Numbered from the stretch's first letter, positions 1 to 55,122 are shown. The stretch: DNA of 64,000 nucleotides from an uncultured bacterium (GCA_963749445.1 CAVVMJ010000007.1:9971-73970); one strand, 5' to 3'. Program-made: numbers and translations. Notes: generated by a model not told the origin, from the letters alone.

Positions 1-573
1 TAAACTTTCCAAAAAATCCCTGGCGTACCACTGCCGCAAATTCCAGAGATCAACGAAAGTCTGCACAGGCGGCGTCAGTTGGCCGAAAACTTTCAGGCGC
101 GGATCCGCGGCCAGGATCGCCAGATTGGGGAAGTCGGACGAGGCCAAAGGGAAGCGCTTGATAATCTCCGGCAAAAAATTTTCGTCCGCGTAAACGTAAA
201 CGTCCGCGTAATCGGCCGGAGTTAAACGGTACTGCCGGACAAACGCGCTGAACGCGCCATAAATTACTCCGGGCGGCATTAATCCCTCTATATCCAGGGG
301 CGAGTTTACCGAAACCTTTGTCTGGTATATTATATCATTCTCCAATTTGCGGTTGCTGGCCCAGAGCAGCAAAAACTTTTCCCTGTCCCGAACCCTAAAA
401 TTCCTGCCGGTTATTTCAATTGCCCCAGCTCTTTTTGGCAAGGCCATGGCGTTATTAACGGTGGATAGCGAAAAACCCAAACGGCCCGCCAGTTCCTTTT
501 GCGTAAAAACATACTGTTTCTTTTGGAAACAATCGTTTAATATTTCTCTCCAGATTTGTTCCTTTTTGAGCAT
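1..573 (-). CDS. winged-helix/HTH DNA-binding protein, C-terminus off-window (partial)
   Basis: Runs off the left edge, so it is absent from the ORF track. Hand translation of the minus strand from ATG (cat at 571-573) gives MLKKEQIWREILNDCFQKKQYVFTQKELAGRLGFSLSTVNNAMALPKRAGAIEITGRNFRV..., open to base 1 (191 codons). HTH-like core is TQKELAGRLGFSLSTVNNA. Track ORF 347..637(+) is its antisense shadow. Confidence 0.6.
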   Translation of the reverse strand, partial: MLKKEQIWREILNDCFQKKQYVFTQKELAGRLGFSLSTVNNAMALPKRAGAIEITGRNFRVRDREKFLLLWASNRKLENDIIYQTKVSVNSPLDIEGLMPPGVIYGAFSAFVRQYRLTPADYADVYVYADENFLPEIIKRFPLASSDFPNLAILAADPRLKVFGQLTPPVQTFVDLWNLRQWYARDFLESL

Positions 574-819
574 ATCTGATATGTTTCGGTTTACTAACTA
601 TTTGATTAACCTCTTTTCTATTATATTAGAAACATAATAATTGGTCAAGTTACAAAATAATATGTGTAGTTTTTATGAGTGATATTATATTATTTGCCTT
701 ATATAAAAGGCTTTATTATTTAAATAGTTGATAAAAACCTTATTTTGTGCTATCATTGATGGTTAATTTCATAAAAGTACTTGTTTTGCTTGTGGTGGGC
801 AAAACCCTGTAAATTCATG

Positions 820-849
820 CCCCCAAAGTCTTTTTGGGGGTTTTTGTTT
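820..849 (+). terminator. rho-independent terminator-like hairpin with no obvious upstream gene
   Basis: CCCCCAAA (820-827) pairs with TTTGGGGG (833-840) around a 5-nt loop, followed by TTTTTGTTT. The T-tract exists only in + orientation. No + strand ORF lies between 640 and 820. Confidence 0.5.
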
Positions 850-1068
850 CTCCCAAACAATTCGTCTGGCATTACCACCACTAATGCTTAATGAATTGCC
901 GGGTAGAAACACAAGGAGTTATTTCCGATAAATCCGACTTTCTGATTTATCTGACTGATTCCGAATTTACCGGGTTTTCCTCTCCATAAGTCGTCCCGAC
1001 TTAATACATTCAATTTATACGGGACATTATGAGAGGGCGATGGCAATATCGCAGCGGCAATTTTATAA

Positions 1069-1797
1069 TTGAGCCGCAGACGTGCACGGCGTTTCCCGTG
1101 CGGGCACCTTAACAATCGAGAAAACCAAATGTTAAAACTAACGTCTGACCCGGTTCGGACCATGGGTCCGAACAATCACTCGGTTGTGATTGGCGTTACG
1201 ATTATCGGCGACAGAAGAACGCCGGTGGTGAACGCAGACGTGCTCCTAAAGCTGGACTCACGAGATTGGGGCACACGAAAGACAAACCGTAATGGCCAAA
1301 TCGAACCGACGGAAGTGACTGCCATCCCCGATGGCAGTTTCAATGGCAACGGCAAACTGACGGTGGAGGCAATCCGCGTCGGCGCACCGGGGGATATGGA
1401 TCGCAAGATTATTGACATCCCAATGCCTCAACCCAAACCCGAACCCGCGGCAGTGGAAAGCATTGCCGTGACCAACGCGACTGAAGGCATTGTCTTGTGC
1501 TCCGGTTTCAACGGAACGCTCGAGATCGCCTTAGGGTTTGAGCAGGGAAAGAAGTCTCGCCCTGTCAGACTGAAAGTTTCGGCCGACCACAGGGTAGATT
1601 TTGCCAACGATAAAACGGGCACGCCTTTAGGCGCGAACGTAAAGTCGTGCGCGGCAACTACTTCGGCAGACGGAGTGCTCCGTCTGCGCGTCAACTTCCT
1701 GGCCTGCGGTCGGGACGAAGTCGAGATCAAAGTATCGGTCCCGAACTCGTCCAAAACTGCTACCGCCAAACTCAAATACAAAATGTTCGAAACTTAG
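1069..1797 (+). CDS. hypothetical beta-rich protein, first gene of the G+C-rich block
   Basis: Maximal ORF starts at TTG 1069, with in-frame ATGs at 1129 and 1162. No SD and no signal peptide. Strand-like segments include VVIGVTIIGDRRTPVVNADVLLKL, GKLTVEAIRVG and RLRVNFLACGRDEVEIKVSV. No family recognised by eye. Confidence 0.55.
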   Translation: MSRRRARRFPCGHLNNRENQMLKLTSDPVRTMGPNNHSVVIGVTIIGDRRTPVVNADVLLKLDSRDWGTRKTNRNGQIEPTEVTAIPDGSFNGNGKLTVEAIRVGAPGDMDRKIIDIPMPQPKPEPAAVESIAVTNATEGIVLCSGFNGTLEIALGFEQGKKSRPVRLKVSADHRVDFANDKTGTPLGANVKSCAATTSADGVLRLRVNFLACGRDEVEIKVSVPNSSKTATAKLKYKMFET

Positions 1798-1810
1798 GAG
1801 AGATAGACTG

Positions 1811-2788
1811 ATGACTCGTCACACACCCACATCCGCTGCACCGCCGCCGGCACCACCCGTGGCAACCGCACCGGCACCCCTCGCACCCGCAGTCATCCCG
1901 GCACAGGCACCCCTCGCACCCGCCACAATTCCGATCCCGGGAGGACACCACCTTAGCGACAAAACTTTGGTGACACTCGACATCCTCGTTGGAATCATCA
2001 CCGCTCTGTTCGGCCACGAAATCGGCCGCCAAGCGGGAAAGTGGTTCCAGGGAGCCAAACGCGGCTTGCAACAGATCGGTACGCCCGGGACAGCAACCGG
2101 GGTCACCATCTCAGGCAACGCACCCGCTCACATCGACCCCACCATCCATAGCGCCCTCCTAGGCATTGGACCGTGGGACGAAGCCGCCACTGGCATGACG
2201 CTGGGTGCTGCTTTCCGGCGGGCATTTCAACGCTTGTTGGAAGCAACCGGCACGCCAATGGAAGCGCCCATCCGCGCCGCGCTTGCCCAGCTGGAACAGA
2301 CTGTCGGCTTCATCGCCAACAAGCTCAACCAGCACCAGCGCGACTTCCTCCGCGAAGTCGTCGGCAAGCTCAAGACGGCTGAACTCCAGAACCTCTTCTG
2401 GCAGGACTTGGTCCTCGCCAGCAAGGACGAAACCGGTTTCATAAACTTTATGAAGGCAATGGGGATCGTCCACGAGCCGAACGAACTCACCCAGGAACTC
2501 GCGATTGCTATTGCCTATGGTTTCGAGCAGGCGAATGTGATCCGGGTCCAAATGGTGACCACGCTCACAGTTCGCTACGACGCCCGTTCCGACGCTGCCA
2601 GACAGCGCTGGTTCACCGCACATGGGCAACTCGCTCAAGGGCAGCCCGTTCAACAAAACGCGACGCCGTTCTGGCGCCGCCGCACGATATGGCTCGTCAT
2701 TGGACTGGCCATTCTGGCAGTGGCTCTATTTCTAGGCCTGCCCCACATCTACCTCAACCTTCGAAATTGGGAATGGAGTTGGAAATGA
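1811..2788 (+). CDS. hypothetical Pro/Ala-rich protein with C-terminal TM anchor
   Basis: ATG 1811 is preceded by AGGAGA (1794-1799). Has an N-terminal tract SAAPPPAPPVATAPAPLAPAVIPAQAPLAPATIPIP, a hydrophobic segment LVTLDILVGIITALFG and a C-terminal TM TIWLVIGLAILAVALFLGL. Stop TGA 2786-2788 overlaps the next start (ATGA). Confidence 0.6.
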   Translation: MTRHTPTSAAPPPAPPVATAPAPLAPAVIPAQAPLAPATIPIPGGHHLSDKTLVTLDILVGIITALFGHEIGRQAGKWFQGAKRGLQQIGTPGTATGVTISGNAPAHIDPTIHSALLGIGPWDEAATGMTLGAAFRRAFQRLLEATGTPMEAPIRAALAQLEQTVGFIANKLNQHQRDFLREVVGKLKTAELQNLFWQDLVLASKDETGFINFMKAMGIVHEPNELTQELAIAIAYGFEQANVIRVQMVTTLTVRYDARSDAARQRWFTAHGQLAQGQPVQQNATPFWRRRTIWLVIGLAILAVALFLGLPHIYLNLRNWEWSWK

Positions 2789-4197
2789 CGAATCTAGGAA
2801 GAATCGGAAGGTCGATCGGCACAATGGTGTCCGGTCTGGAAGCGAGGATTTTGGGCTGGATTAGCGCTCATGTCTCGCTAACGCCGCGCGCCTTCGGCAC
2901 GTGGCTTGACGAACACAATTTCATCCGGCTGGAAAACGGCGCGCCTGTCACGGACTACGCCGGTTTCTTCCGCTGGACACGCAACTCGCTCCTGTCCCTG
3001 ATGGCACTGACTTTATTGCTCGAAGCCTACACCATAGTCATCGGGACATTCAACAACACCCCGCTCGGCCTCGGCATAAGCTTAGGTTTCGGTGTGGCAG
3101 TGTTCGGCATCGCGTCGGTGGTCTGGATTTGGAGGACCATCGGCCGCGTCAACGAAGGCTTGGCCTGGATTTTCACTCTGGCCACTGCCACCCTTGCCCT
3201 AATTGGCTTAGGGACTCCGACTTACCAGTACTACGCCGCGGGGAACCTCGCCAAACTTTCGGCAAAAGATATCCAAAATCTGATCGCGGCAGGCATTCCG
3301 CGAATCTGGGCTATGGCGGGCTTTTGCCTGCTCAGCCTGATCGTTCTTCCGCTTACCTGGATGACCACTCTGGGGCCCGCCCTGCTGTCCCTGGCTTTCG
3401 CCAAGACGGCAGAAGGTCTGGAAACGGCGTGGACAGAAATCCGGAAAATATTCTCGCACGATAGGGAAGTAGCGGAAGCCGCTGCGGAAAACCTCCGCAA
3501 GCGGACAGAAACACAGACCGGCCTGCTCATGCTCACATGGGCGATCCTGGCGCTGTTTACTCTCTCTATTATTCTCTCGTCCACGGTCTGGGGGCCTTTC
3601 GGCGGCTTGGTCATCGGTATGACCGCAATCGTGCCGGTATGGATACGACGGTGGAATATGTTCTTGGGAACTTTCTTAACCAAGGCACTCTACGGCGTAG
3701 CCACAGGAGGGCTGATCTTTATCTGCTTCCTGTACGGCCTTTCACTCTCGGCCTTGATGCTGATTCCCGACCAAATTTCGCTCAACGCACTGCTAGTAAT
3801 CAAGTGGGCCAGCTTCCTAATCGGTCTCGCTTCGGCAGTTGGAGTGTTGTTTACCTCCACCACGGCCAGCAAACAGAACGAACTGGAAGCCGGCATGGGG
3901 GAAATTCAGCCCTACACCAGAAAGGTCACGGGTTTCGGGACTGATGGGCAGCCGATTTTTGAAGCTGTTCACCCCAAACCGACGTCCTTCGCCTGGGTCA
4001 AGCCCACGGTCTTCGGTGCTGTTGTCATCGCTCTGGTTGCCTATGTGCACTACAACGGCAACCCGCTTTCCGGCACCAGCCCGCTCAAGCTGGTCGCTTA
4101 CACAATGGTTGTCGGCTTGATCCTTATTCTCTTTGGGATCTTTTCCGGCGGCAAGACGCAAGCCACCCCTACACAGGAGGTGCGCCATGACCACTAG
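2785..4197 (+). CDS. polytopic integral membrane protein, unknown family
   Basis: The track ORF starts at 2689, but ATG 2785 forms an ATGA overlap with the upstream stop and has GGAG at 2775-2778. About ten hydrophobic helices, e.g. LLSLMALTLLLEAYTIVIG, LGISLGFGVAVFGIASVVWIW, GLLMLTWAILALFTLSIILS, AYTMVVGLILILFGIF. Confidence 0.65.
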   Translation: MTNLGRIGRSIGTMVSGLEARILGWISAHVSLTPRAFGTWLDEHNFIRLENGAPVTDYAGFFRWTRNSLLSLMALTLLLEAYTIVIGTFNNTPLGLGISLGFGVAVFGIASVVWIWRTIGRVNEGLAWIFTLATATLALIGLGTPTYQYYAAGNLAKLSAKDIQNLIAAGIPRIWAMAGFCLLSLIVLPLTWMTTLGPALLSLAFAKTAEGLETAWTEIRKIFSHDREVAEAAAENLRKRTETQTGLLMLTWAILALFTLSIILSSTVWGPFGGLVIGMTAIVPVWIRRWNMFLGTFLTKALYGVATGGLIFICFLYGLSLSALMLIPDQISLNALLVIKWASFLIGLASAVGVLFTSTTASKQNELEAGMGEIQPYTRKVTGFGTDGQPIFEAVHPKPTSFAWVKPTVFGAVVIALVAYVHYNGNPLSGTSPLKLVAYTMVVGLILILFGIFSGGKTQATPTQEVRHDH

Positions 4198-4771
4198 GAA
4201 AAAGTGCATCGTCATCGGCACTTTAATCGTCGGCGCAGCAGCCGCTGTGCTCCTCGGCTATTACGTAGGCATTGGCAAGTACGCGCCCAGCGAACAGGCG
4301 GCCTACAACCGCCTTCACGCGGCGAACAACTGGGAGTTTGAGGGGAAAACAAGCGATGTTGAAGACAAGCAAGTTCCCCTCGCCGACAAGGTTGCTCAAG
4401 TCAACGTCCTAGCCGTGCAAAAACGCACTCTGGACGCGCAAATCGGCCACCCGGAGCTGACCAACTGCCGGACGCAACCCGGCAAGGACAAGGACGGCAA
4501 GCCAATACTGGTGTCCGAGCCGTGCCCCGGCGGCGTCTCCGCGGCAATCTACAGGGGCAAAGAGGCCGTCATAACGGTCCAGCTCCTAACTTACAGCAAC
4601 GACGAACTCCCGCTCAATGTCGCACCGACCCTCGTCGGCGACGAGCAACTCGGTGGGACAGCAGTACCCCTGGGCAACAACCGGTTCCGCGTGTCGGGAC
4701 TGGTGTATGACCAGGAAAAAATCGCCGGCGGATACAAGATTCGCGTTACGCCGGAAGGAGGAGGAAACTAA
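4187..4771 (+). CDS. N-terminally membrane-anchored protein, unknown family
   Basis: The track ORF starts at 4133. ATG 4187 has AGGAGG at 4175-4180 and overlaps the upstream stop (4195-4197). Anchor CIVIGTLIVGAAAAVLLGYYVG is followed by a soluble domain of about 170 aa. Confidence 0.6.
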   Translation: MTTRKKCIVIGTLIVGAAAAVLLGYYVGIGKYAPSEQAAYNRLHAANNWEFEGKTSDVEDKQVPLADKVAQVNVLAVQKRTLDAQIGHPELTNCRTQPGKDKDGKPILVSEPCPGGVSAAIYRGKEAVITVQLLTYSNDELPLNVAPTLVGDEQLGGTAVPLGNNRFRVSGLVYDQEKIAGGYKIRVTPEGGGN

Positions 4772-4896
4772 TGAGAGACAGGATCCCGTGGCCTCGATCG
4801 ACAATTGACAGTAATGATTGCCCGACGAGGTGTAGGGAACCGACTTGGACAGGAGAGAAAAACAAATAATTAAGCAATTATTTCTCTCCCGTCCGT

Positions 4897-4998
4897 TTTA
4901 AAAGCCGTCATAGATTAACCTTATCATTCTCCCCCAAATCATGAGGAGATACCCCGCCGAAGGCGGAACAGAGAGGTTAAACTATGGCGGCTTTTAAA
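4897..4998. other. compound stem-loop element (long rod plus two internal hairpins), candidate structured RNA
   Basis: TTTAAAAGCCGTCATAG (4897-4913) pairs with CTATGGCGGCTTTTAAA (4982-4998): 17 bp, with one G-U if read on +. TTAACCT (4915-4921) pairs with AGGTTAA (4974-4980). Inner hairpins are TCTCC/GGAGA (4928-4932 / 4945-4949) and CCGCC-GAA-GGCGG (4954-4966). Confidence 0.4.
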
Positions 4999-5000
4999 TT

Positions 5001-5027
5001 GGCCACATTCCATTTTGGAATGTGGCC
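5001..5027. terminator. hairpin between convergent genes
   Basis: GGCCACATTCC-ATTTT-GGAATGTGGCC, a perfect 11-bp stem between the + operon end (4771) and the minus pilin gene end (5061). No clean U-tract on either strand. Confidence 0.4.
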
Positions 5028-5060
5028 ATCCCGAACGAAGTGAGGAATCTATTTAACTTT

Positions 5061-5765
5061 TTAATTAGTTGTCTGGGTTGTAGTGCCCCGCTGTAAAATG
5101 TCGGAGGTCGTTAAGGTGGAGGTAATAATCGTAACAATGGAGTAAGCCAAAATTACCACTACCAAACCGACAATCGCGTTAATCAAAGCTTTTTTGCCTT
5201 TTTCCGACTGCTCCTCATTGCCCGCGGACGTAATGTACCAAAACCCGCCGACAATTAACGCGACCACCGCTATCAATCCGGAAAGAATCAATAAATACTT
5301 TATAACGACAAAAATCAAATCCACCAAGGTTCCCGCGCCTGCCGGGCTGCCGGCAGTATAAGTATTTGCCGGTACGCAAAAGCCGTTGATTTGCACCAGT
5401 CGGCTGTCGCCGCAAGGGCCACTCACCGTGGAAGGGATGGTTGGATTTAAGTTCACTCCTCCGCTATTTTGATACGCAGTACAAACCGGATCGTTCGGGT
5501 AGCTGTTGCAACAAGCTAACCCGGTTAAGCCCGAAGAGGCGCAGTCAACTTGCTTTGGCCCGACAATTCCGCCGGCAACGCAGGCACTTCCTGAATAAGT
5601 GCATCCCACTGTATTTGCGCACTGGATCGGATCAGCAATACCGGTACAATTATCGGCTTTAGCCAACAAAGGCCCACATGCCAAAAAACTAAAGGCCAAA
5701 GCAAAAACTGCAAAAAACACAAGTCCTGTCAGTTTATCAAATTGCAATTTGCTATTTTTTTTCAT
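5061..5765 (-). CDS. TrbC/VirB2-like (T4SS-pilin family) membrane protein with Cys-rich ectodomain
   Basis: Signal/anchor LTGLVFFAVFALAFSFLA, a Cys-rich N-terminal region, then the family core GGFWYITSAGNEEQSEKGKKALINAIVGLVVVILAY (two TM helices around a charged loop). Confidence 0.8.
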   Translation of the reverse strand: MKKNSKLQFDKLTGLVFFAVFALAFSFLACGPLLAKADNCTGIADPIQCANTVGCTYSGSACVAGGIVGPKQVDCASSGLTGLACCNSYPNDPVCTAYQNSGGVNLNPTIPSTVSGPCGDSRLVQINGFCVPANTYTAGSPAGAGTLVDLIFVVIKYLLILSGLIAVVALIVGGFWYITSAGNEEQSEKGKKALINAIVGLVVVILAYSIVTIITSTLTTSDILQRGTTTQTTN

Positions 5766-5774
5766 CGCGAAAAT

Positions 5775-6173
5775 TTAAACCCCGAGCCCGCCGGTAATGG
5801 TATTTTCAATGACCGTAATAATTGTATAAGCCAAAATAATAATCACAATGCCGATAATGGCATTGATTAAAGTTTTTTTGCCTTTTTCCGACTGCTCCTC
5901 GTTGCCGGACGCGGTAATGTAATAGTACCCGCCGATAATAATGAACAGCACGGCAATGGCGCCGGCAAACAGCAGCATCAGCTTAATGACATCATAAATC
6001 AAATGCGGCAAATCCGGCTCCTGGGACAGCCCGCCGATGCCGAACAAATCCCTTAAACCGCCTATGCCGGTCAGCCCCTGGCCGACCGCGCTGGTCTGGG
6101 CAAAAACCATAGCCGGCAAAAATAGCAAAGCGGAAGATATCCAGGCAAATATTTTTTTGACTGTTTGTTTCAT
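5775..6173 (-). CDS. TrbC/VirB2-like (T4SS-pilin family) membrane protein, short form
   Basis: Signal IFAWISSALLFLPAMVFA; core GGYYYITASGNEEQSEKGKKTLINAIIGIVIIILAY. Confidence 0.8.
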   Translation of the reverse strand: MKQTVKKIFAWISSALLFLPAMVFAQTSAVGQGLTGIGGLRDLFGIGGLSQEPDLPHLIYDVIKLMLLFAGAIAVLFIIIGGYYYITASGNEEQSEKGKKTLINAIIGIVIIILAYTIITVIENTITGGLGV

Positions 6174-6235
6174 AAGATTGTGCTTCTAATTATTAAAAGT
6201 TAATTAAACACCAATCAGAATGTCGGAATGTCGAA

Positions 6236-6298
6236 TTAATCGGAGGGGTCATTTCCAAAATTTTTCCAATTTGTTATTAACCGATTAATTTGTTCAGA
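6236..6298 (-). pseudogene. remnant of a four-helix-bundle (Avd / 23S rRNA IVS protein-like) gene, C-terminal about 20 codons only
   Basis: Minus-strand reading EQINRLITNWKNFGNDPSD* matches the C-terminus KQINRLITNWKNFRSDNSD* of the gene at 7966..8350. The adjacent non-coding stretch 6303-6350 matches 8362-8410. Confidence 0.6.
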
Positions 6299-6448
6299 AA
6301 CTAAGACCAATCTTTATTGCCTGTATACGTCCAACTACCCGACCTCCGATATTCTGATTTATCCGATTATTCCGACTTCTGATTCCAAACTCAGGGGCAG
6401 AACCAGTTCCGCCCGAGAGCCCGGAGCCGAAATTTTCGGCCGACCGTT

Positions 6449-6542
6449 TAGTGTCATTGCGAGGAGGCCGGGGCTTTGTCCGGCCGACGCGGCAATCCCT
6501 TCTTTTGATAAGATTGCTTCGGCTGCTACTGCAATGACACTA
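6449..6542. repeat. palindromic intergenic element (TAGTGTCATTGCGAGGAG...GCAATGACACTA)
   Basis: Terminal inverted repeats TAGTGTCATTGC / GCAATGACACTA. The internal GCGGCAATCCC...GATTGCTTCGGC motif is shared with the GAAATTGCGAGG family copies. Confidence 0.6.
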
Positions 6543-6548
6543 AATTTT

Positions 6549-6941
6549 TTAGCTGGATGACTTGGAAACCAAACCGGCCACCACGTTAACGATTACGTAG
6601 GACAAAAGAATAATGACAATACCGATAATGGCGTTAATGGCCGTGTTCTTGCCTTTTTCCGCGGTTTCCTCATTGCCGGCGGAGGTAATGTACCAGAAGC
6701 CGCCAATGATTAAGAACAACACGGCAATACCAAAGGCGATCCCTAGGAGCCAATTGATGATATTTTTAATCAACGCGTTAGCATCGGTAGTGCCGCAGTT
6801 TAATCCGGTTCCGGAGCAGTTAGGAGCGGTCAGCTGCGCCTGTCCAAAATGCAATGGGACAAACACAAAAATCGCCACCAACACCAGCTCAGCGACCACT
6901 AACCAATTGATTTTCTTGATTATTTGTTTCAAGCTGTTCAC
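6549..6941 (-). CDS. TrbC/VirB2-like (T4SS-pilin family) membrane protein, short form
   Basis: Signal WLVVAELVLVAIFVFVPLHFGQA; core GGFWYITSAGNEETAEKGKNTAINAIIGIVIILLSY. Confidence 0.8.
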   Translation of the reverse strand: MNSLKQIIKKINWLVVAELVLVAIFVFVPLHFGQAQLTAPNCSGTGLNCGTTDANALIKNIINWLLGIAFGIAVLFLIIGGFWYITSAGNEETAEKGKNTAINAIIGIVIILLSYVIVNVVAGLVSKSSS

Positions 6942-7061
6942 CCCCTCTCGTTTCCCTTTCCCTCTCCCTCGGGGAGAGGGCAGGGTGAGGGTTAATTTGC
7001 TGACATTATTATACTACGATTCCTAATTTTTGGCCATCTCTATCTTTTTGGCACACGGTTG

Positions 7062-7946
7062 TCATCTCGGGCTCGGCCCAGGCGTAGGATAGGTTAAATT
7101 CTTATTGGTGGCTTGGCCGCAAACAAAAGTTTGCACCTCCTGCCCGGGCTGTATGGGTTTCTGGGAAGCCATGGCCACGGCCCAGCCGCTTGCGTTTTGC
7201 GTATAGTTTGATTGCATATAATCCGCGCCGTCAACTTTTACGGTAAAAGAGATAGGACTTACATCGCCACATATCATCGCAATCTGTGCCAATAAATCTC
7301 TTTCGCCAGTAGAAATTGTGGAATTCACTAACAGGCCGGGATTTTTGGGCGTAATGACAATATTGTCCCCCAAATAATTTTTATTGGTGCTCCTAGCATT
7401 ACTGACATCCTGTAAACTGATGCCCGCGAACATCGGGTTGGAATAAGCATTGCCTCCTTGCGTACCCGCGACCGCCGGATTGGTGTTGGTATTAGCCGAC
7501 GGATTAGTTACTGCCGGGGTATTGCCATTGCCGGTACTGCCCCCGGTCAACCCGCTGGTTAGCAAATTAACCGTGATGCGGACTATGGCATAAGCCATAA
7601 TAATTACGACCAAACCGATAATCGCGCTGGTAATGGCCTTGCGGCCTTTTTCGGATTGCTCCTCGTTGCCCGCGGCCGTCAGGTACCAAAAACCGCCCAA
7701 AATTATGAACACTACGGCCACCAAGGCGGCAAATTCCAGCAATAACTGGATAACATTGCCCACGGCCTGCTGGGGCGTACATAGTTTGGGGAGGCCTTCA
7801 ATGGTATTTACCGGTTTGCCGTTAACGGTAATTTGAAACTGGCCAAAAAACTTGTTGCAATCAAATTGCGCCGACGCCGGCATGGCCAACAGCCAGCTGA
7901 AAAGGATTATCACCAGAAAAAATTGAAGCTTATGCGTTTTCTTCAT
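7062..7946 (-). CDS. TrbC/VirB2-like pilin-family protein with about 150-aa C-terminal extension
   Basis: Signal LQFFLVIILFSWLLAMPASA; core GGFWYLTAAGNEEQSEKGRKAITSAIIGLVVIIMAY. Followed by a Gly/Asn/Thr linker and a C-terminal domain (…ISFTVKVDGADYMQSNYTQNASGW…). Confidence 0.8.
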   Translation of the reverse strand: MKKTHKLQFFLVIILFSWLLAMPASAQFDCNKFFGQFQITVNGKPVNTIEGLPKLCTPQQAVGNVIQLLLEFAALVAVVFIILGGFWYLTAAGNEEQSEKGRKAITSAIIGLVVIIMAYAIVRITVNLLTSGLTGGSTGNGNTPAVTNPSANTNTNPAVAGTQGGNAYSNPMFAGISLQDVSNARSTNKNYLGDNIVITPKNPGLLVNSTISTGERDLLAQIAMICGDVSPISFTVKVDGADYMQSNYTQNASGWAVAMASQKPIQPGQEVQTFVCGQATNKNLTYPTPGPSPR

Positions 7947-7965
7947 AATTTTTCGGAAAATCGGA

Positions 7966-8350
7966 TTAATCGGAATTATCGGATCTGAAATTCTTCCAAT
8001 TGGTTATTAGTCGATTAATTTGCTTGGATACTATTTTATAGTGCTTGATTAGTGCTTCGCAGGTTTCGGGTTTAATATTCGGGAAACCAATGAGTTTAAT
8101 TTGTCTTAGATGGGTTATAACTTCATCCGAAGATCCCAACGCAATCCGCAAGTAACGCTTGAATTCTTTTTCCGAATTTCGTTTGGCAAAACCTTCGGTA
8201 ATTTGCGCCGGAACTCCTTTTGCCGCGCCCGTTAACTGGTCTTTTGTCCGAAACTCATTTTTTGGCAACAAATCTGCTAACCGGTAAATCGGCCTAATCA
8301 ACTTCATTGACCTTCTGATAAACCTCTAAATCCTCAACATCCTTTATCAT
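7966..8350 (-). pseudogene. four-helix-bundle protein (Avd / 23S rRNA intervening-sequence protein family), frameshifted near N-terminus
   Basis: Track ORF 7966..8307 reads ...GAAKGVPAQITEGFAKRNSEKEFKRYLRIALGSSDEVITHL. The family N-terminus MIKDVEDLEVYQK is encoded from ATG 8350 in another frame. One extra nt near 8308-8314 separates YQK from SMKLIRPIYRLA. Confidence 0.7.
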
Positions 8351-8394
8351 AATTAAAAAATTAAGACCGGTTTTTATTGCCTATATCCATCCAA

Positions 8395-9978
8395 CTATCC
8401 GACCTCCGATTTATCCGACATTCCGACATTCCGACATTCCGACATTCCGACATTCCGATTTATCCGAATCATACTCGTACTCTGGCTGACGTTTTGGATT
8501 TGCGTCTGCAAAATATATTGGACAATGGCAATGATGCTAAAGGACAGCAAAGCAATGGCTAAACCCAAAATGGCCCAGGTGATGGTCTTGCGCGCGGCCG
8601 TGACCGCCTCTTCGTTGCCCTGGGACATGACGTAGCGGAAGCCACCGATGACTATAAAAGCCACGGACCACAAAGCAATGACGCCCAAAAAGGCGCGCAT
8701 TATCAACAGCAAAGTCGCAGTCAAAGAATCCACGGGCAGGGGGTTATATAAACAATTGTTGGCATCGGGACCGGTACAATTAGCGGTGGAAGGAGTGCCG
8801 GCGGCAGAACATGTCCCTCCCGTGGCGGCTGAACATATCTGCCCGGAACTGCAAGTCCCCTGCTGCCCGGGACCTCCGGTACAAGAAGCACCAGGCGCGA
8901 CAGCCGCGGTCGGACTTACAGTAATATTAAAAGTAGTCGGTCCAACCCCATTTAACGCTGTGGTTCCGTCAGCGGCCACCGGAGTCGCGACAATTGAATT
9001 AACGCCGCTAATATTAAAACCGGAGTTTGCGTCCAAGGTAAAATTTTGGCTCCATTGTTTTGAACTGTCAAGTTTTACATCTTGATTACCCGCGTGCACC
9101 AATAAAATGCCGCCACTGGGCATATTGGTGGCAGAAATTGTTATGGTAGTTCCGGGCGCATAAGTACTATTGGCCGCAGGCGGCGATAAAACAACCGTCG
9201 GCGCGTTACCACTTGCGCCTGTGGCCTGAGTTAAAGTATAAGTTTGATCATAAATTCCCTTGCCGCTACTATCAGTCAGGACAAATCTTAACTTGTTATC
9301 CCCATTGCTAATAAATCCATTTGTGGCATTTACCGCTATTTGGTTGCCGCCTGAGTATATTGCAACAAAGTGATTATTATCGTTGACATAAATGTTTCCC
9401 TGCGCACCGGGCGGAAAATCTGTATAAGTAATTTTTAAGGTATCGCCAATTTTAGCGGTAGGCGGTGAAACTGTAAAGTTAAACCCCTCTCCTAAAGGAT
9501 TATTAGAAACATTTAGCTGTTTTCCCCAATTTTTTGTATCTCCCAAGTCACCCAAACTTGAATGAACATCCAAATAGTAAGGAAAAATGTAATCTGACCC
9601 TGACTTGGTAACATCACTCCAACGGGAAAAATTTGATAAATTAAAAGGGCAGTCAATATTAACATTGTTAGGAACAGGCGGGCTGACCTGGCACCTGGCC
9701 AAATACCAAGGGCTACCACTGATAGGGGCAATAAAATCAAACTCCATGATATTATTGGCACTACAGCCGTTTGTATTAACTATGGTATTAAATTTTGCCG
9801 AATCGCCTTTATAAATTCTGGTTGGAACTGCCTCCATAGAGGTAATTTGCACCTGGCAAATTCCTGCGGCTATTGCAGATTTTATGAATCCACGCCCAAA
9901 AACCCCGGCCAGCATCAATAAAATTATGACGCTGCTTTTTAGTGCGCTTAATATTTTATTGTACTTGTTCTGCGTCAT
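8395..9978 (-). CDS. TrbC/VirB2-like pilin-family protein with about 400-aa N-terminal ectodomain
   Basis: Signal SSVIILLMLAGVFG, a beta-rich repeated ectodomain and a Cys/Gly/Thr linker (CTGGPGQQGTCSSGQICSAATGGTCSAAG). Core is GGFRYVMSQGNEEAVTAARKTITWAILGLAIALLSF. The last about 25 codons run into the CCGACATT tandem repeat. Confidence 0.75.
   Translation of the reverse strand: MTQNKYNKILSALKSSVIILLMLAGVFGRGFIKSAIAAGICQVQITSMEAVPTRIYKGDSAKFNTIVNTNGCSANNIMEFDFIAPISGSPWYLARCQVSPPVPNNVNIDCPFNLSNFSRWSDVTKSGSDYIFPYYLDVHSSLGDLGDTKNWGKQLNVSNNPLGEGFNFTVSPPTAKIGDTLKITYTDFPPGAQGNIYVNDNNHFVAIYSGGNQIAVNATNGFISNGDNKLRFVLTDSSGKGIYDQTYTLTQATGASGNAPTVVLSPPAANSTYAPGTTITISATNMPSGGILLVHAGNQDVKLDSSKQWSQNFTLDANSGFNISGVNSIVATPVAADGTTALNGVGPTTFNITVSPTAAVAPGASCTGGPGQQGTCSSGQICSAATGGTCSAAGTPSTANCTGPDANNCLYNPLPVDSLTATLLLIMRAFLGVIALWSVAFIVIGGFRYVMSQGNEEAVTAARKTITWAILGLAIALLSFSIIAIVQYILQTQIQNVSQSTSMIRINRNVGMSECRNVGMSDKSEVG
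8415..8460. repeat. tandem octamer (CCGACATT) x5 plus partial copy
   Basis: ccgacatt repeated five times from 8415 to 8454, then ccgatt. It forms the 3' tail of the 527-aa pilin ORF. Confidence 0.9.
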
Positions 9979-9990
9979 ACTTTTTGATTT

Positions 9991-10485
9991 TTACTTCCCT
10001 GCCGGCGCGATGCCTTCTTCCACGTTATAGGAATTTGGGACGCAGGTATAACTGCTCGGGTTGGTCAAAGTAATGTAAGTCCACGGACTGGCAAAATCAA
10101 TTTTGCATTTGGACATTAATAGAATATTAACTGCGGTATTGACGAACATATACGCGGCCACGACCACAAAAAATCCTATGAATACCTGGGTTAACGCTCC
10201 CTTGTGTTTGGTAATGTCCTCCTCGTTGCCGCTGCTCGCCACCAGCCAAAAAGAATGTTCAACAATCTTGTAAACCGCGTAAAGCCCGGCCATGGCTATC
10301 AGCCAGTTGGTCACCCGCGCCACCCCGTAAAAAGCGTCCAAAACTCCGCAGGGATGATTATCCGTCGGCCCGCTGCCGCCGCAGGGAACTAGTCCAGCGG
10401 CATGGACGAAAAATGGCATAGAAAAAGCTATTGTTATTGTTAAGATTACCGCAACTAAAAGCCTTTTTTGTTTCAAGATAATCAT
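9991..10485 (-). CDS. TrbC/VirB2-like (T4SS-pilin family) membrane protein, divergent member
   Basis: Signal LLVAVILTITIAFSMPFFVHA; core FWLVASSGNEEDITKHKGALTQVFIGFFVVVAAY. First gene of the minus-strand pilin array. Confidence 0.7.
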   Translation of the reverse strand: MIILKQKRLLVAVILTITIAFSMPFFVHAAGLVPCGGSGPTDNHPCGVLDAFYGVARVTNWLIAMAGLYAVYKIVEHSFWLVASSGNEEDITKHKGALTQVFIGFFVVVAAYMFVNTAVNILLMSKCKIDFASPWTYITLTNPSSYTCVPNSYNVEEGIAPAGK

Positions 10486-10727: not shown

Positions 10728-12024
10728 TCACTGCCCCGCAGTGATTGCGGCCGCTTGTTGTTCGGCTTGACTAAGCGAATCCTGCGCGCTCAACCCGTTT
10801 AAAATTACGTTATCAATCGCCTTGCCGAAAATGTTGTCCATCTTGGCCTGGTCCGGGCGGTAAAAAGATTTAGCGGTAAGGTTGGCGTTGGCAAACACGC
10901 CGATGTCCGGGTCCGGAATTTGCAGCTCAATAAGGTCGCGGCGCGAAGACGGCACTTTGTTTTGCGCGTAATATTGGTCCAGGCTGTCCTTGCTCGTTAA
11001 AAATTTTACCAAATCCCAGGCTGCGGCCAGTTCTTACTCTGTTTGCTCACCACCTCTCCCCAGTAGTTGGCAAAATTCACGGATGGGTTATTCAAATCCG
11101 GCTGCGGCACGCCGGCCACGTCAAAATTCAAATTGGGAGATTTTTGTAAGATGGTGGCGCGACTATAGGAATAGCTGTACAAAAACGCGGCGCGGCCGTT
11201 GGCAAAAGCGTCAATGGAATAATCGCTTTGGGCGTTCCAGTTGTAATTAGGGCTGGAAGGATTGGCAAAAGATGTGTAAAAACTCAAAGCACTGACTCCG
11301 GGATTGGTAAAATTGCCGTTTTTCTGAACCGGGTCGGCAAAAGTCGGCTGCATGCCGGTATAAGGCATGGTGCCCTGCTGCAGCATCATCAAATACAAAA
11401 TATCCACCGCGCGATTGACATTGGCGTTAGTACCTAATGCTACGCCGCTTTGCAAAAAATAACCGTGGCTGTCCTGCCGCTTGATTTTCTGCACATCCGT
11501 TGCCAGCTCGCTCCAGGTCTTCGGCGGCGTGGCAATCCCCGCGCTGCCCATCATATCCTTGTTATAATACAGCGCCAAAGAATCCACGGACATGGCCGCG
11601 CCGTAAATTTTTCCTGGCTGGTAAAATCGTTGACCACCGCGTCCACAAAGGTATCCTTAAAATCCTTCAAAGTAAAAATGGAAGCCGGCGAAGGCGTGGC
11701 TTTGTCCAAATACTGCGGCAGCCAGGCGTTGTTGATGGAAAAAATATCCGGCCCGTTGCCTGCGGCCAAAGCGTTCAGCAAATCCTGCTGGTAAGTGTTA
11801 ATGTCTTTTTTGGTGTAGACGATGGTAATATTGGGATTTTTTTGGCGGTAAGCGTCGAGCAGCGGCTGCAGGCTTTGGCTGTCCATAAACGGATTCCACA
11901 TGGTCAGGGTAATATTCCGCTGAACCGTAGTTGTCCCTCCCCCGCCGCATCCCGCCGCAAGCAAACTAAGGCCGATGGCGGATAAAAGCAATTTTGGTTT
12001 GAAAAATTTTCTTTTTGGTTTCAT
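10728..12024 (-). pseudogene. ABC transporter extracellular solute-binding lipoprotein (family 1), two frameshifts
   Basis: Three track ORFs (11551..12024, 11006..11593, 10728..11012) are consecutive parts of one SBP. Lipobox is LSLLAAGCGG. Junction 1 ...NDFTSQEKFT / PGKIYGAAMSVDSLALYYNKD lies near 11615; junction 2 ...VVSKQSKN / ELAAAWDLVKFLTSKDSL lies near 11030. Confidence 0.8.
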
Positions 12025-12123
12025 ATGCCGCGGATATTCACGCGGATTACTACGCGGATCTACCGCTGACAGCCGCGCCTTCCGCGTCTGATCTGCGTTG
12101 CTATCCGCATTTAATCCGCAATT

Positions 12124-48692: not shown

Positions 48693-51128
48693 CTAGTCAG
48701 AAAACCGCCGGTAAAAACGGCGCTTAATCAATTCCACCAAAACCAGGTAAACCGCGGTTATCAAAATAATTCCGCCTACCGCAGTTACCGGCAATACAGC
48801 AAATTTAAATACCGCGCCAAACCTTGACAGCGCCACCCACCAGCCCGCGGCAATGGCGGCCAGCACGGAAAACGCCAAATACTTGGACGGATTGCTTTGC
48901 AGGAACGGAATTTTTTTGGTGCGGATAATAAAAATCACCAAAGCCTGGGTGGCTAGGCTTTCTAAAAACCAGCCGGTCTGAAACTTACTGCCGGAAAATT
49001 TAAATACCACGAACAGCAAATAAAAAGTGGCAAAATCAAACACGGAACTGACCGGGCCGAACACCAGCATAAACTCCTTAATGAATTTTAGGTTCATTTT
49101 GCGCGGTTTCTGAACCTGTTCGTGATCTACCCGGTCAAGGGGAATGGTGAATTGGGAAGAATCGTATAAAAGATTGTTAAATAATATTTGCGTCGGCAGC
49201 ATGGGCAAAAATTTAAAAAACAGCGAAGCTCCGGCCATGGAAAACATATTACCGAAATTGGATGACAGCGCCATCATTAAATACTTCATGGTGTTGGCAA
49301 ACGTCTGCCGTCCCTGGATAACGCCGTTGGCCAAATCACGCAGGCTTTTGTGCATTAAAATCAGATCAGCCGAGTCTTTGGCCACATTGACCGCGTTGTT
49401 CACGGAAATGCCCACGTCCGCGGCTTTCAGGCTCGGCGCGTCATTTATGCCGTCACCCATATATCCGACCGTGTGGCCGTTTTTTTGCAAGGCTATGATG
49501 ATGCGCTTTTTCTGCTCCGGATTGACGCGCGCGAAAATCGTGGTGGCCTCAACGGCTTTAACCATTTCGTGGTCGGATAACTTTTCTATTTCCTCGCCGA
49601 GCAATACTCCTAAAACCGGCAGCTCAATTTCCTGGGCGATTTTTTTGGTCACCAAATCGTTATCACCGGTAATAATTTTAATGCTAATGCCGTAATGTTC
49701 CAGCAATTTTAAAGTTTCCGTAACGGTTTTTTTGGGCGGATCCAAAAACGCCACAAAGCCCAAAAATATCATAGCTGATTCATCCGCTTTATCGTAAACT
49801 CTTTTGGATTCACTAATGGGTTTGTAAGCGATGCCGAGCACTCGAAATCCGTCCTGACTTAATTTCCGGTATTCATCTTCCAGTTCTTTTAACACATGCG
49901 GTGTAAGCTTGGTCTCTTCGTTTTTATAATGACCACAAGTCGTCAATAACCCCTCGGGCGCGCCTTTGGCCACCAGCTCTTTGCCTGCCGCGGATTCCAC
50001 CACCACGCTGTCCCGCCGGCGGTCAAAGTCAAACGGGATTTCATCGAGCTTCTGATAATGTTTGGTTTCGATCTTTTTAAATTTCTTGATGGCGGCATCC
50101 AGCGGGTTATGGAAACCGCTGCGGAACGTGCTGGTCAAATACGCATACTCAAAAATTTTCTCATCCGCCTCGCCCTTGGCATCCAAATATTTTACCAGGA
50201 CAATGTTGTCCTCGGTCAAAGTTCCGGTTTTGTCCGTGCACAGTACGTCCATACTGCCGAAGTTTTGGATGGATGATAGTTTTTTCACGATAACGCCGTG
50301 CTTGGACATATTCAAACTACCTTTGGAAAGGTTTAACGCGATAATCATCGGCAATAACTCCGGGGTCAAACCGACTGCCAGCGCGGCCGAAAACAAAAAC
50401 GATTCCAAAATGTTGGCCTTAAGCAGGGCGTTTATCAAAAAAATGCAGATTACCAAAACAAAGGTAATCTTCATAATCAAATAACTAAAATCTTTGATGC
50501 TGCGGTCAAATTCCGTGGGCTGTTCGCTGCCTTCCAGAGATTGCGCAATATGGCTAAACTTGGTTTGCCGGCCGGTAAGCTCCACTTCCATGGTCGCCGT
50601 GCCGCTTATGACGCTGGTGCCCAAAAACAGGGGAGTACCCGGCTCTTTTTCCGTGGGGAACGATTCGCCGGTCAACGCCGACTCGTTCAGAAAAAAATCT
50701 TTGGCCTGCAAAATTTTGCCGTCAGCCGGCACTAAATCGCCGGCTTCCAATTCCACCGCATCGCCGGGCACGATTTGCCGAAGCGGTAAATCAACGGTTT
50801 TGCCATCGCGGATGACGCGCGCCAGGACCTGGACTTTTTCCTTTAATTCCTCTGCCGCGCGGCTGGACCTAAAAGTATTAATAAAATCCAGCAGCACGCT
50901 TACCAAAATAATGGCGATGATAATCGTGGCGCTCACCGGATCGCCGGTCAAAGCCGATATGCCGGCCGCAAACACCAAAATCAAAACCAGCGGATTCTTA
51001 AACCTTACCAAAAAATCCACCAACCCTGAAATCTTTTTCCCCTCCGCCATCTGGTTCGGCCCATACTGCTTAAACCGCTTTACGGCTTCGGCTGATGTTA
51101 AACCTAAATTTTGATTTGTTTCTCCCAT
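48693..51128 (-). CDS. cation-transporting P-type ATPase (MgtA/Ca-ATPase-like)
   Basis: CTDKTGTLT phosphorylation site, TGES, ITGDN, MGDGINDAPSLKAADVGISV, and ten TM segments. 811 aa. Confidence 0.9.
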   Translation of the reverse strand: MGETNQNLGLTSAEAVKRFKQYGPNQMAEGKKISGLVDFLVRFKNPLVLILVFAAGISALTGDPVSATIIIAIILVSVLLDFINTFRSSRAAEELKEKVQVLARVIRDGKTVDLPLRQIVPGDAVELEAGDLVPADGKILQAKDFFLNESALTGESFPTEKEPGTPLFLGTSVISGTATMEVELTGRQTKFSHIAQSLEGSEQPTEFDRSIKDFSYLIMKITFVLVICIFLINALLKANILESFLFSAALAVGLTPELLPMIIALNLSKGSLNMSKHGVIVKKLSSIQNFGSMDVLCTDKTGTLTEDNIVLVKYLDAKGEADEKIFEYAYLTSTFRSGFHNPLDAAIKKFKKIETKHYQKLDEIPFDFDRRRDSVVVESAAGKELVAKGAPEGLLTTCGHYKNEETKLTPHVLKELEDEYRKLSQDGFRVLGIAYKPISESKRVYDKADESAMIFLGFVAFLDPPKKTVTETLKLLEHYGISIKIITGDNDLVTKKIAQEIELPVLGVLLGEEIEKLSDHEMVKAVEATTIFARVNPEQKKRIIIALQKNGHTVGYMGDGINDAPSLKAADVGISVNNAVNVAKDSADLILMHKSLRDLANGVIQGRQTFANTMKYLMMALSSNFGNMFSMAGASLFFKFLPMLPTQILFNNLLYDSSQFTIPLDRVDHEQVQKPRKMNLKFIKEFMLVFGPVSSVFDFATFYLLFVVFKFSGSKFQTGWFLESLATQALVIFIIRTKKIPFLQSNPSKYLAFSVLAAIAAGWWVALSRFGAVFKFAVLPVTAVGGIILITAVYLVLVELIKRRFYRRFSD

Positions 51129-51247
51129 ACTTTGTGCTTTTCTTTATTTTAGCACAAAAAAACCGAACTTTGCTCCAAATAGCTCGGCCTCCTGAACGAC
51201 GTTCGTACCTGTGTGGAAATTGCCCCGGTTTAACCCCGACTAGTACT

Positions 51248-52245
51248 TTAAACTTGGTTATCTAAATCTTTAGCATTAACACCCATTTTTTTATAATAGC
51301 AATCAGCCAGTTCCTGTAATTTTTTTAAGTTGGACAACATTTCTTCTTCTAAAAGCAACGGCCTATAAGTATCCATTATAATCCTAATAAGTAAACCGGC
51401 CACAAAAATACAATCTACGTACGCGTTCTGGACATCTTTGTCTGATGAACTGCCCCCAACGTTTATCCGAACCTGTAAACGTCCGTCTTTGACACCGCCT
51501 TGTGTAACCTTTGATTGAATGTACTTAAAAGTGGCGTGGAACCCATTTCTGAAAATTTGCTATAATATTCGTCTCGGGCTGGCTTACCTAATTTTTTTCT
51601 TACGGCAGCAGGTTTTAACTCTTCCCAACGTTCTTTTGTATCTTCGCCGGCCCAAAGTTTTATAAGTTCAGGACGCAGATTGAATAGCTCTATTTTATCA
51701 ATAATGTCTAAAACAATTCTCGTATGCGCTATGGATTGCGGCGCAAATCTATGCTCTGCCAGGTGATATGCGACAACAATTTCATCTATAGCGGAGAACA
51801 ACAAACCCAACTTCGCCATATCTGCTGACTTTAAACCGCTGTCCGAAACGTCAGAAAGATAATTAAGTAAAGTTTGCCCTATAAAAATAAAAATCTCTTT
51901 TGCTTCCGCAGCCAAGTTAGTTGTTGGGTTGGGCGCTTTATTTAAACTATCCAGGAAAGTATTCAGGTCAAAATGTTCATTTTTAACTTGTTTGGATAGC
52001 CGCAGGGCTTTCCTTTTGTCTAAACTGTCTGGCTTACTTTTCCAAGTTTTAGTAATTTCATCATTTGCTTCTTCCAGAAGTTTAATTTGTTTATCAATCA
52101 GCTCTTTTGCCTCGGGTGTTAACTCTTCATAATGTTCCGACGCAAATTTGAGGTGTTCGGATATAGCATTAGCTAAATCCGCTTCTGTCTTGGCTTGTGT
52201 TGCTGCGTCTTTAAGTTTATTTTTTAAGAAATCGGCATCAATCAT
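51248..52245 (-). CDS. hypothetical helical protein (DUF5677/AbiV-like, tentative), C-terminal frameshift as sequenced
   Basis: The track ORF ends ...KTDVYRFG* at 51463. Another frame continues VGGSSSDKDVQNAYVDCIFVAGLLIRIIMDTYRPLLLEEEMLSNLKKLQELADCYYKKMGVNAKDLDNQV* to stop 51248-51250. The segment VVAYHLAEHRFAPQSIAHTRIVLDIIDKIELF recalls HEPN-type AbiV/DUF5677. Confidence 0.45.
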
Positions 52246-52347
52246 TTTTATAGCGCCATTAGTTCTATGGTAAAATTTAGCCCCCAGCCCAACTCATGGT
52301 ATCTTTGGGGAGGTTCACGGGGTTCACTGATTCACGTTCTTAAATGT

Positions 52348-52563
52348 TTATTTTCTTAAAAAATAAGCTAATAAATATCCAACAATGGCTGTCGCAACAA
52401 TCGCTATAATAATCTTATAGCTTTTACTAAGTATGTCTTTAGCGAGTTTAGAAATGCCCTTCCAAATTCCCCAAAAAATTAGCATGATGGGTGCCAAAAT
52501 ATAATTTAGCAGAAATTCTATAACACTTATTTTTTTATCGTATTTGTTCCATCTTTTTTTCAT
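52348..52563 (-). CDS. small two-TM membrane protein
   Basis: From MKKRWNKYDKKISVIEFLLNYILAPIMLIFWGIWKG...IIIAIVATAIVGYLLAYFLRK. The track start 52641 would overlap the upstream gene. Confidence 0.5.
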   Translation of the reverse strand: MKKRWNKYDKKISVIEFLLNYILAPIMLIFWGIWKGISKLAKDILSKSYKIIIAIVATAIVGYLLAYFLRK

Positions 52564-52573
52564 AATGGTCTGA

Positions 52574-52786: not shown

Positions 52787-52805
52787 AAGTAACAAAGTTA
52801 ATTTT

Positions 52806-54311: not shown

Positions 54312-54329
54312 AAGATTGTTTTTAACTGG

Positions 54330-55033: not shown

Positions 55034-55122
55034 AACAGTTAATTAGATGGCAACCAATACACCTCATCTGTCGCTCCGATGCAGTCGCGACATCTTCCCC
55101 TCCAGGGGAAGAGGCTCCGCGG

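Follow-up and report, generated by a model that had tools for sequence, protein, structure and literature searches.

Positions 1069-4771 of a 64,000-nucleotide stretch of DNA from an uncultured bacterium (the window) contain a genuine four-gene operon, G1 to G4, that belongs to a small family of envelope modules encountered so far only in gene contexts of the Patescibacteria type. Members of this family occupy one fixed chromosomal site, which extends from the 3' end of an array of VirB2-like pilin genes to tRNA-Leu(UAG) and ftsH, where they form an optional, G+C-rich islet on the opposite strand. The protein families and the leader motif are new, and the kind of genome feature, a flexible islet, is already known. 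We favor, with about even confidence, the interpretation that the operon, which resides in this flexible islet, is a surface determinant of an accessory and strain-variable kind that serves host contact or exclusion, and is neither core pilus machinery nor a recent import.

The four-gene operon and its proteins

Four overlapping open reading frames (ORFs) can be read on one strand of the block (1162 or 1069 to 4771). An earlier annotation made from the sequence without database searches (the sequence-only reading) had described them as co-directional, with an ATGA overlap between genes 2 and 3 at 2785-2788 and an 11-nt overlap between genes 3 and 4 at 4187-4197, and both overlaps are present in the sequence. 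Lengths are given below in amino acids (aa), together with transmembrane (TM) segments and Shine-Dalgarno (SD) sites.

1162..1797, + strand: G1, 211-aa beta-rich protein without a signal peptide
1811..2788, + strand: G2, 325-aa helical protein, SD site AGGAGA at 1796-1801
2785..4197, + strand: G3, 470-aa integral membrane protein with 10 TM helices in an AlphaFold2 (AF2) model, GGAG at 2775-2778
4187..4771, + strand: G4, 194-aa protein with an N-terminal TM anchor and a predicted exported domain, SD site AGGAGG at 4175-4180

The sites GGAG at 2775 and AGGAGG at 4175 lie where they had been placed, and AGGAGA, originally assigned to 1794, is displaced by a slip of two nucleotides. The start of G1 is uncertain among three candidates (TTG 1069, ATG 1129 and ATG 1162), none of which has an SD site. 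An independent gene call begins at 1162, which gives the 211-aa product, and resemblance to relatives sets in near position 1291. The closest relatives of G1 are longer (335-432 aa versus 211 aa), and no leftovers of a longer N-terminal domain were found in region 846-1290.

The coding assignment is real because gene order and sequence are conserved across divergent loci. The order G1-G2-G3(-G4) recurs in L003/L096, L002, L018, L010, L091, L092, L093 and the P0007 contig, in most cases with short gaps or overlaps between the genes. Members of the G1 family occur in L003/L096, L018, L005, L009, L054, L091, L097 and L100. A separate Logan assembly is 100% identical to the window across 781-6481, with 598-780 lying outside its coverage.

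Hydrophobicity and the AF2 model agree with the product types that were originally sketched. G1 is soluble and has no hydrophobic segment, G2 has a C-terminal TM helix, G3 has ten TM segments, and G4 has a single TM segment at its N-terminus. G2 combines a Pro/Ala-rich N-terminus with a hydrophobic helix at residues 53-71, an invariant D-E(-A) motif (D123, E124) and the C-terminal TM helix (290-317); the N-proximal hydrophobic helix is weak and the C-terminal one strong. The C-terminal helix is present in 0 of 10 aligned homologues. It belongs to an extension of about 55 aa (window 2689-2788) that reaches into the ATGA overlap, and all ten aligned homologues stop sooner, with a basic tail. This extension looks like a stop-codon loss particular to this genome. 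The conserved parts of G3 are a FLTKALYGVATGGLIF helix, a hairpin with the pattern Y-x-R-x-V-T-G-F-x-x-D-G-x-P and a C-terminal tail that contains His. G4 is the most divergent of the four proteins. Its domain retains two invariant cysteines (C94 and C113), which would be compatible with an exported, disulfide-bonded domain.

Fusion proteins in other lineages suggest how these products may be oriented in the membrane. In P0009, P0014 and P0015 a His-rich linker, one or more extra TM segments and a beta-rich domain come after the G3 core, and the P0009 fusion repeats the layout of G4 (a short basic tail, one TM segment and a predicted exported domain). Judged by these fusions, the C-terminus of G3 is probably cytoplasmic, and ten helices would then place its N-terminus in the cytoplasm too. 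The conserved soluble pieces of G3 would then lie on the cytoplasmic side, and most of what is exposed outside would belong to G4 or the fused domain.

None of the four proteins matches a family in Pfam, PHROGs (best E 0.053), PADLOC or NCBIfam. The PADLOC models return zero families at E<=1 for all four, and no nuclease, ATPase or other enzymatic domain was found in G1-G4 with Pfam and NCBIfam. The description of a translationally coupled, envelope-associated operon with no assignable family is thus supported. Relatives of G3 number three among 5.8 billion proteins, and a profile search extends this to 21 among 1.84 billion cluster representatives. A word-indexed search with G4 returns G4 alone, and a concatenated G1, G2 and G4 alignment used as a single homology query recovers only G2 itself. 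Peptide-pattern scans based on the close G3 alignment find nothing in GTDB genomes, metagenomes or IMG/VR, and tblastn of G3 against 50,697 phage and 72,556 plasmid records gives no match. Across 19 G3 and 7 G4 family members, Pfam gives scattered single weak matches only; there is no TrbL/VirB6 signal at E<=1 for G3 or any of the 19, and no VirB8 signal in the seven G4 members.

Structural comparisons are likewise negative. Profile searches of the PDB with G1 and G4 return nothing (G4 at E<=10). G2 scored E 2.4e-6 against a trimeric CfaB fusion; however, the value is about 1 for single CfaB chains and no stretch passes alone, so we rejected this match as a summed repeat artifact. The AF2 model of G3, built from 19 sequences, has a mean predicted local distance difference test score (pLDDT) of 78 and a predicted template-modeling score (pTM) of 0.63. 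Foldseek comparison of this model with the PDB and BFVD gives best E values of 0.34 and 0.71, with template-modeling scores of 0.19 or less, and no chain annotated as part of a type IV secretion system (T4SS) is among the matches listed. A VirB6-like fold for G3, which the sequence-only reading had raised, is therefore not supported. The G4 model, built from 5 sequences, reaches a pLDDT of only 41.6. The module thus adds four new protein families, and for the modeled one, G3, neither solved nor viral structures offer a relative.

A fixed site with a conserved leader

GTDB species representatives scanned with the GalU protein of the window yielded 80 loci with GalU identities of 59-81%, most of them labeled Candidatus Doudnabacteria, Patescibacteria or 'uncultured Saccharibacteria'. 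Marker mapping reveals a backbone on one strand in the order comM, galU, a solute-binding-protein gene (sbp), five to eight T4SS_pilin genes, tRNA-Leu(UAG) and ftsH. About 30 of these loci are empty, with the tRNA and ftsH genes 0.1-0.9 kb past the last pilin gene, and at least 13 carry an opposite-strand insert between pilin and tRNA. Inserted loci are L012, L014, L018, L028, L029, L033, L042, L043, L054, L064, L073, L085 and the window, and other look-ups supplied L005, L008, L009 and L096. Every insert is G+C-richer than its own backbone, by 4 to 19 points, in hosts of 41 to 55% G+C.

Homologues of the module fill the site in the window, L096, L018, L012, L054, L064, L005, L008 and L009. 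The module is convergent on the pilin genes in the window, L005, L009, L012, L018, L064 and L096, and tRNA-Leu(UAG) and ftsH lie on its other side in L005, L009, L014 and L096. In L005 the module is found at the same site in the middle of a 214-kb contig (about 57% G+C within a background of about 44%), even though the GalU protein of this locus is only 44% identical to that of the window. In relatives the islet adjoins the 5' side of tRNA-Leu(UAG) and not its 3' end. The 40 ORFs of ten other islets include two cold-shock domains, one protein kinase and one doubtful match. Neither these 40 ORFs nor G1-G4 include an integrase or transposase, and no flanking direct repeats occur in window 500-5400.

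Protein comparisons suggest that the module has been inherited along with the site and also exchanged there. Between the window and L096, identity is 50% for G2, 44% for G3, 35% for G1 and 28% for G4. Against the L096/L018/L064 group as a whole, the corresponding values are 45-50% for G2, 40-44% for G3, 35-40% for G1 and about 28-32% for G4, next to 37-62% for the pilins; GalU is 77% identical between the window and both L018 and L064, and L096 has no galU. Within the L096/L018/L064 group all identities are higher, for pilins and module alike. Divergence increases in the order G2, G3, G1, G4, so the predicted exported protein evolves fastest. The GalU protein of L012 is 79-80% identical to those of the window, L018 and L064, yet this locus has another type of G3 (type B, about 395 aa) that is only 22-26% identical and has P0013 and P0018 as its nearest relatives. 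In P0005 an N-terminal part of type B is continued by about 70 C-terminal residues that are nearly identical to the type-A protein P0003; judged by these alignments, P0005 is a recombinant. Because signals of co-inheritance and of exchange are both present, the islet appears to be old at this site, optional, fast-evolving and exchanged between strains. On these identities the block was not recently acquired from an unrelated donor.

A promoter-hairpin-terminator leader (728-849) is conserved ahead of the islet in 14 loci. In the window it consists of the following elements.

728..756, + strand: sigma-70-type promoter, TTGATA-17-TATCAT with a TG extension, directed into the operon
784..807, + strand: leader motif TTTTGCTTGTGGTGGGCAAAACCC, 24 nt, 9-bp hairpin with loop UGUGG
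819..849, + strand: intrinsic terminator GCCCCCAAAG...UUUGGGGGU with a U-run, at the end of a leader of about 85 nt

The terminator had been regarded as an orphan in the sequence-only reading and is instead part of this leader. Promoter, motif and terminator align in the window, L096 and L014 amid sequence that has diverged. The -35 and extended -10 elements align with those of L096 and L014, and similar TTGACA...TAtAAT promoters precede the L005 and L009 modules. The 24-nt motif is identical in L096 and L014 and recurs exactly in 10 further metagenome contigs. In 7 of these 10, tRNA-Leu(UAG) lies 90-260 nt upstream of the motif on the other strand, and ftsH is present in 5 of those 7. Downstream of the motif, these contigs have plus-strand ORFs that are mostly G+C-richer than the upstream flank, some of them G1- or G2-like and some not.

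The terminator stem has compensatory changes in three of its seven pairs across 12 distinct sequences. The first hairpin is invariant because sequences were recruited by the exact motif, and it is consequently uninformative for covariation. A covariance model detects the leader at the 5' end of L092, a locus with a type-B module, and has no significant match in islet-less loci; the exact motif is absent from the viral contigs of IMG/VR. A second promoter-like site is located at 1040-1069. The leader may be an attenuator of the operon, or it may be a separate RNA of about 85 nt with transcription restarting downstream, and the 1040-1069 site permits both. We rejected an assignment to the Rfam small RNA NsiR1 (24.8 bits versus a gathering score of 39), as the likeness consists of hairpin plus terminator only. 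This new leader RNA motif offers a handle for finding the locus in searches.

The deviant composition claimed for the block is borne out by windowed G+C, third-codon-position G+C (GC3) and tetranucleotide calculations. The block has 57.6% G+C compared with 46.2% for the remainder of the window, and it ranks first among 121 sliding windows of the same size for both G+C content and raw tetranucleotide deviation. GC3 is 0.68-0.71 in G2, G3 and G4, whereas the maximum for a backbone ORF is 0.669. First- and second-position G+C (GC1 and GC2) are elevated in addition to GC3, which indicates more than an amino-acid effect. Composition steps sharply at both block edges. The contrast between an SD-bearing block and a mostly SD-less backbone also holds, as SD motifs accompany 3 of the 4 starts in the block and roughly 7 of the 58 backbone ORFs (hypergeometric p ~0.012; backbone starts are longest-ORF starts and are approximate). 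Strong SD sites are found elsewhere as well, with AAGGAGGA ahead of G1 in L096, L018 and L005 and GGGAGGAAAAATG in L009, and all islets at the site are G+C-rich and have strong SD sites. High G+C could result from repeated replacement from higher-G+C relatives, from selection on the transcript or from GC-biased gene conversion at a recombination hot spot, all of which are candidate causes. That every islet is G+C-richer than its own host, across hosts of 41-55% G+C, is a separate puzzle in genome evolution.

A second compositional outlier of the opposite kind lies at 51000-55200 in the window; it is A+T-rich (about 38% G+C) and has a low tetranucleotide correlation. A 501-aa ORF within it (52806-54311) has no Pfam match.

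Possible functions and alternative explanations

The surface-module interpretation follows from three observations: the exported part changes faster than the rest, module types are swapped and recombined between strains, and most relatives with the same array lack the module. A role in host contact or exclusion is a further inference from topology, the fast exported part, type switching and the neighborhood. If the operon works in this way, transcription would begin at the conserved promoter and then either read through the leader terminator, as in attenuation, or start anew downstream, in which case the leader would be a separate small RNA. The coupled ORFs would yield a complex in the cytoplasmic membrane with G3 as a 10-TM scaffold that has both ends in the cytoplasm. 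G4 would cross the membrane once and, with its Cys-containing ectodomain, supply the only external part of any size, and in other lineages its place might be taken by the equivalent TM segment and beta-domain that are fused to the G3 C-terminus. G2 could be a helical protein tethered to the cytoplasmic face of the membrane, and G1, which lacks a signal, could be a beta-sandwich partner or cargo. A strain-variable membrane and exported operon beside pilin arrays, with a leader of its own, is a concrete candidate for a determinant of host range or surface specificity in an uncultured lineage.

Flexible genomic islands are hypervariable, often adjacent to tRNA genes, and encode envelope or surface functions. 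Like them, the module is found at a fixed tRNA-side site where presence and content vary among close relatives, and it has a deviant composition, membrane and exported products and mosaic recombination. Unlike them, the islet spans only 3-6 kb and is G+C-richer than its host, not poorer, the module has no glycosyltransferase-type enzymes or mobility genes, and the operon has its own conserved promoter-hairpin-terminator leader.

Several observations weigh against the surface-determinant interpretation. It does not explain the persistently high G+C of the islets. The left flank in the window is a helix-turn-helix (HTH) regulator gene instead of tRNA-Leu and ftsH, and no tRNA-Leu occurs within the window. 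Module profiles show no significant relation to the proteins of other islets (HMMER --max and hhalign), the exceptions concerning a C-terminal beta-domain (hhalign E 0.0044 at a probability of 8%; BLASTP 1.8e-4 for an L033 ORF against P0009). That the other islets and the module are one hyper-divergent system is accordingly an architectural impression. The topology was derived from the fusions together with the helices of the AF2 model, instead of with a topology predictor, and is to be read as a model. Pilin adjacency could also be mere use of a permissive insertion site.

The composition and SD use of the block could instead be signatures of a foreign, higher-G+C donor from which it was recently imported. 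This proposal accounts for the top rank of the block among G+C and tetranucleotide outliers, the joint elevation of GC1, GC2 and GC3 and the enrichment of SD sites, and it is compatible with the patchy presence of the module and the different type in L012. However, every homologue with context sits in the same Patescibacteria locus, and no relatives occur in other contexts among the 1.84 billion representatives. Module divergence parallels that of the flanking pilins, the same site is used where GalU has diverged to 44% identity, integrase, transposase and flanking direct repeats were not found, and islets are G+C-rich in every host regardless of its own composition. We consider a recent import unlikely. 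The horizontal acquisition proposed in the sequence-only reading thus survives as exchange at the site, to which the patchy presence in close relatives, the L012 type switch and the P0005 mosaic attest, and fails as a recent arrival from a foreign genome. A remnant of a prophage, plasmid or integrative element, which deviant composition and a site adjoining a tRNA gene in relatives might suggest, is very improbable. No PHROG match, BFVD fold match (best E 0.71) or match in the phage and plasmid records was obtained, the protein patterns and leader motif occur in no IMG/VR contig, no integrase was found, and the islet lies at the 5' side of the tRNA and not at its 3' end. Sharp composition steps at both edges and the many homologues on short contigs might also betray an assembly chimera, in which a fragment of a higher-G+C organism was joined to a contig from the candidate phyla radiation (CPR). 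The misjoin that the sequence-only reading had allowed for is not seen in the second assembly, identical over 781-6481. The same module-pilin junction recurs in L096, L018, L012, L005 (a 214-kb contig with both flanks) and L009, and the left-edge leader is common to loci carrying tRNA-Leu and ftsH, which leaves a chimera with hardly any credibility.

Two further explanations accept the operon as resident and differ in its function. The module always lies next to T4SS_pilin arrays and converges on them, and it could be a dedicated partner of the VirB2-like pilins in which G3 is a VirB6-like channel or platform and G4 is VirB8-like, jointly assembling or anchoring the pilus. A polytopic protein paired with an N-anchored bitopic one beside VirB2-like pilin genes fits this in outline, and VirB6 homologues are described as scarce or absent in some CPR phyla (Microgenomates and Gracilibacteria) in the relevant passages of Quinonero-Coronel et al. 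2025 (PMC12102498). There is, however, no sequence similarity to VirB6 or VirB8 (no Pfam signal in the 19 G3 and 7 G4 family members), no fold similarity for the G3 model and no VirB4 nearby, judged by the eight ORFs of >=500 aa in the window. Most pilin-keeping relatives dispense with the module, and about 30 of them retain the array with no gene at the site. We therefore do not regard it as core pilus machinery, and a dedicated pilin partner seems rather improbable. A competition or protection cassette, such as a membrane-acting toxin/immunity, superinfection-exclusion or anti-phage system in a hotspot resembling a defense island, would be in keeping with a hypervariable tRNA-adjacent site with orphan genes, rapid turnover and mosaicism, and with the protein kinase and cold-shock-domain genes in other islets there. 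Nevertheless, no PADLOC match and no nuclease, ATPase or other enzymatic domain was found, and the four-gene architecture has been kept over deep divergence, which is unusual for shuffled defense genes. We regard such a cassette as improbable too.

Integron cassettes and antigenic-variation loci have expression sites in which a constant promoter or leader precedes exchangeable genes. The conserved 5' leader and the gene sets that differ between strains recall this arrangement and are a lead only; in contrast to those systems, no integrase, attC-like repeats or silent donor copies are seen here. Exchange at this site presumably proceeds by homologous recombination of whole islets. A bolder version of the surface-determinant interpretation, to which we assign a low probability, is that the islet is the 'expression site' of a hitherto unrecognized envelope machine, specific to Patescibacteria, that cooperates with VirB2-like pilins in, for instance, recognizing or contacting a host. 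Its leader would be riboregulatory, its exposed parts would be diversified by cassette-like recombination between strains, and GC-biased gene conversion at this recombination hot spot could keep its G+C high.

The pilin array and other neighboring features

The convergent pilin array of the window and the gene that interrupts it are as follows.

5061..10485, - strand: six T4SS_pilin (PF18895) genes in a convergent array, interrupted by a 23S-rRNA-intervening-sequence-protein-like gene
7966-8307, - strand: 23S-rRNA-intervening-sequence-protein gene (four-helix-bundle, PF05635) within the pilin array

In one study, VirB2-like arrays of 2-11 genes with low mutual identity are described in CPR (Quinonero-Coronel et al. 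2025, doi 10.1101/2025.01.22.634366 / PMC12102498), and the six divergent PF18895 genes of the window fit what is set out in its sections on these arrays. The array in the window lies away from any VirB4. Seven of the eight large window ORFs encode a pilin-domain protein, ComM, an exonuclease, FtsK, a P-type ATPase, EPSP synthase and IF2, and the eighth is the ORF at 52806-54311 mentioned above. The passages on pilins, VirB2 and VirB6 in the same study do not mention an adjacent module, an islet or the tRNA-Leu/ftsH junction, and none of the titles and abstracts listed in a full-text search for Doudnabacteria deals with this locus. The role of the T4SS in Saccharibacteria has been called "completely unknown" (PNAS perspective, PMC11665869), and VirB2-like arrays and T4SS genes are reported to be indispensable to epibiotic growth of the only CPR species that is genetically tractable (PMC12102498, PMC11665869).

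A PF05635 gene inside or beside the pilin array is also present in L020, L033, L042 and L064. The solute-binding-protein gene of the window (10731-12123, - strand) is split into three overlapping ORF fragments, and in nearly all related loci it is intact (about 430-440 aa). The split gene is either a pseudogene or the product of frameshift errors.

The spacer between the operon and the convergent pilin gene (4772-5060) contains four hairpins and folds at -116 kcal/mol (z = -9.5 versus shuffles). It matches no Rfam family at threshold, and no similar sequence was found in other loci. Its principal elements are these.

4847..4894, + strand: G+C-rich hairpin followed by GTTTT, candidate operon terminator
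4897..5028, no strand assigned: long inverted repeat with 25-nt arms (4897-4998) and a perfect 13-bp hairpin (5000-5028), between the convergent operon and pilin gene

A short palindrome, CATCCCGAACGAAGTGAGG(A/G)ATC with stem ATCCC/GGGAT, marks the downstream edge of the module in the window (5027-5053) and, in opposite orientation, in the distant locus L005 (12195-12221). A related GTCATCCCGAAC string lies near tRNA-Leu in L009, at about 890-905. From its sequence this edge motif looks like a repetitive extragenic palindromic (REP) element.

Type-B modules are preceded by a small extra membrane protein with the pattern ...W-I-K-A-F-(G/A)-P-V...W-S-L-x-L-P-I..., which has no counterpart in the window. 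It is encoded at the following positions.

L091, 1-723: small membrane protein ahead of a type-B module
L092, 334-636: small membrane protein ahead of a type-B module
L103, 339-1301: small membrane protein ahead of a type-B module

Between module and pilins, L005 (12294-15346) has two paralogous polytopic proteins of about 510 aa with host-like G+C. Homologues of this pair adjoin galU in other loci (also L060, L074, L084 and L086). No Pfam family is recorded for the pair, which look like envelope membrane proteins of the glycosyltransferase type. Directly after the pilin array of L030 (15790-18448), two ORFs, the first with an N-terminus that resembles DnaA by eye, take the place of tRNA-Leu and ftsH. 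If these two ORFs are dnaA and dnaN, then the pilin array of this locus adjoins the replication origin.

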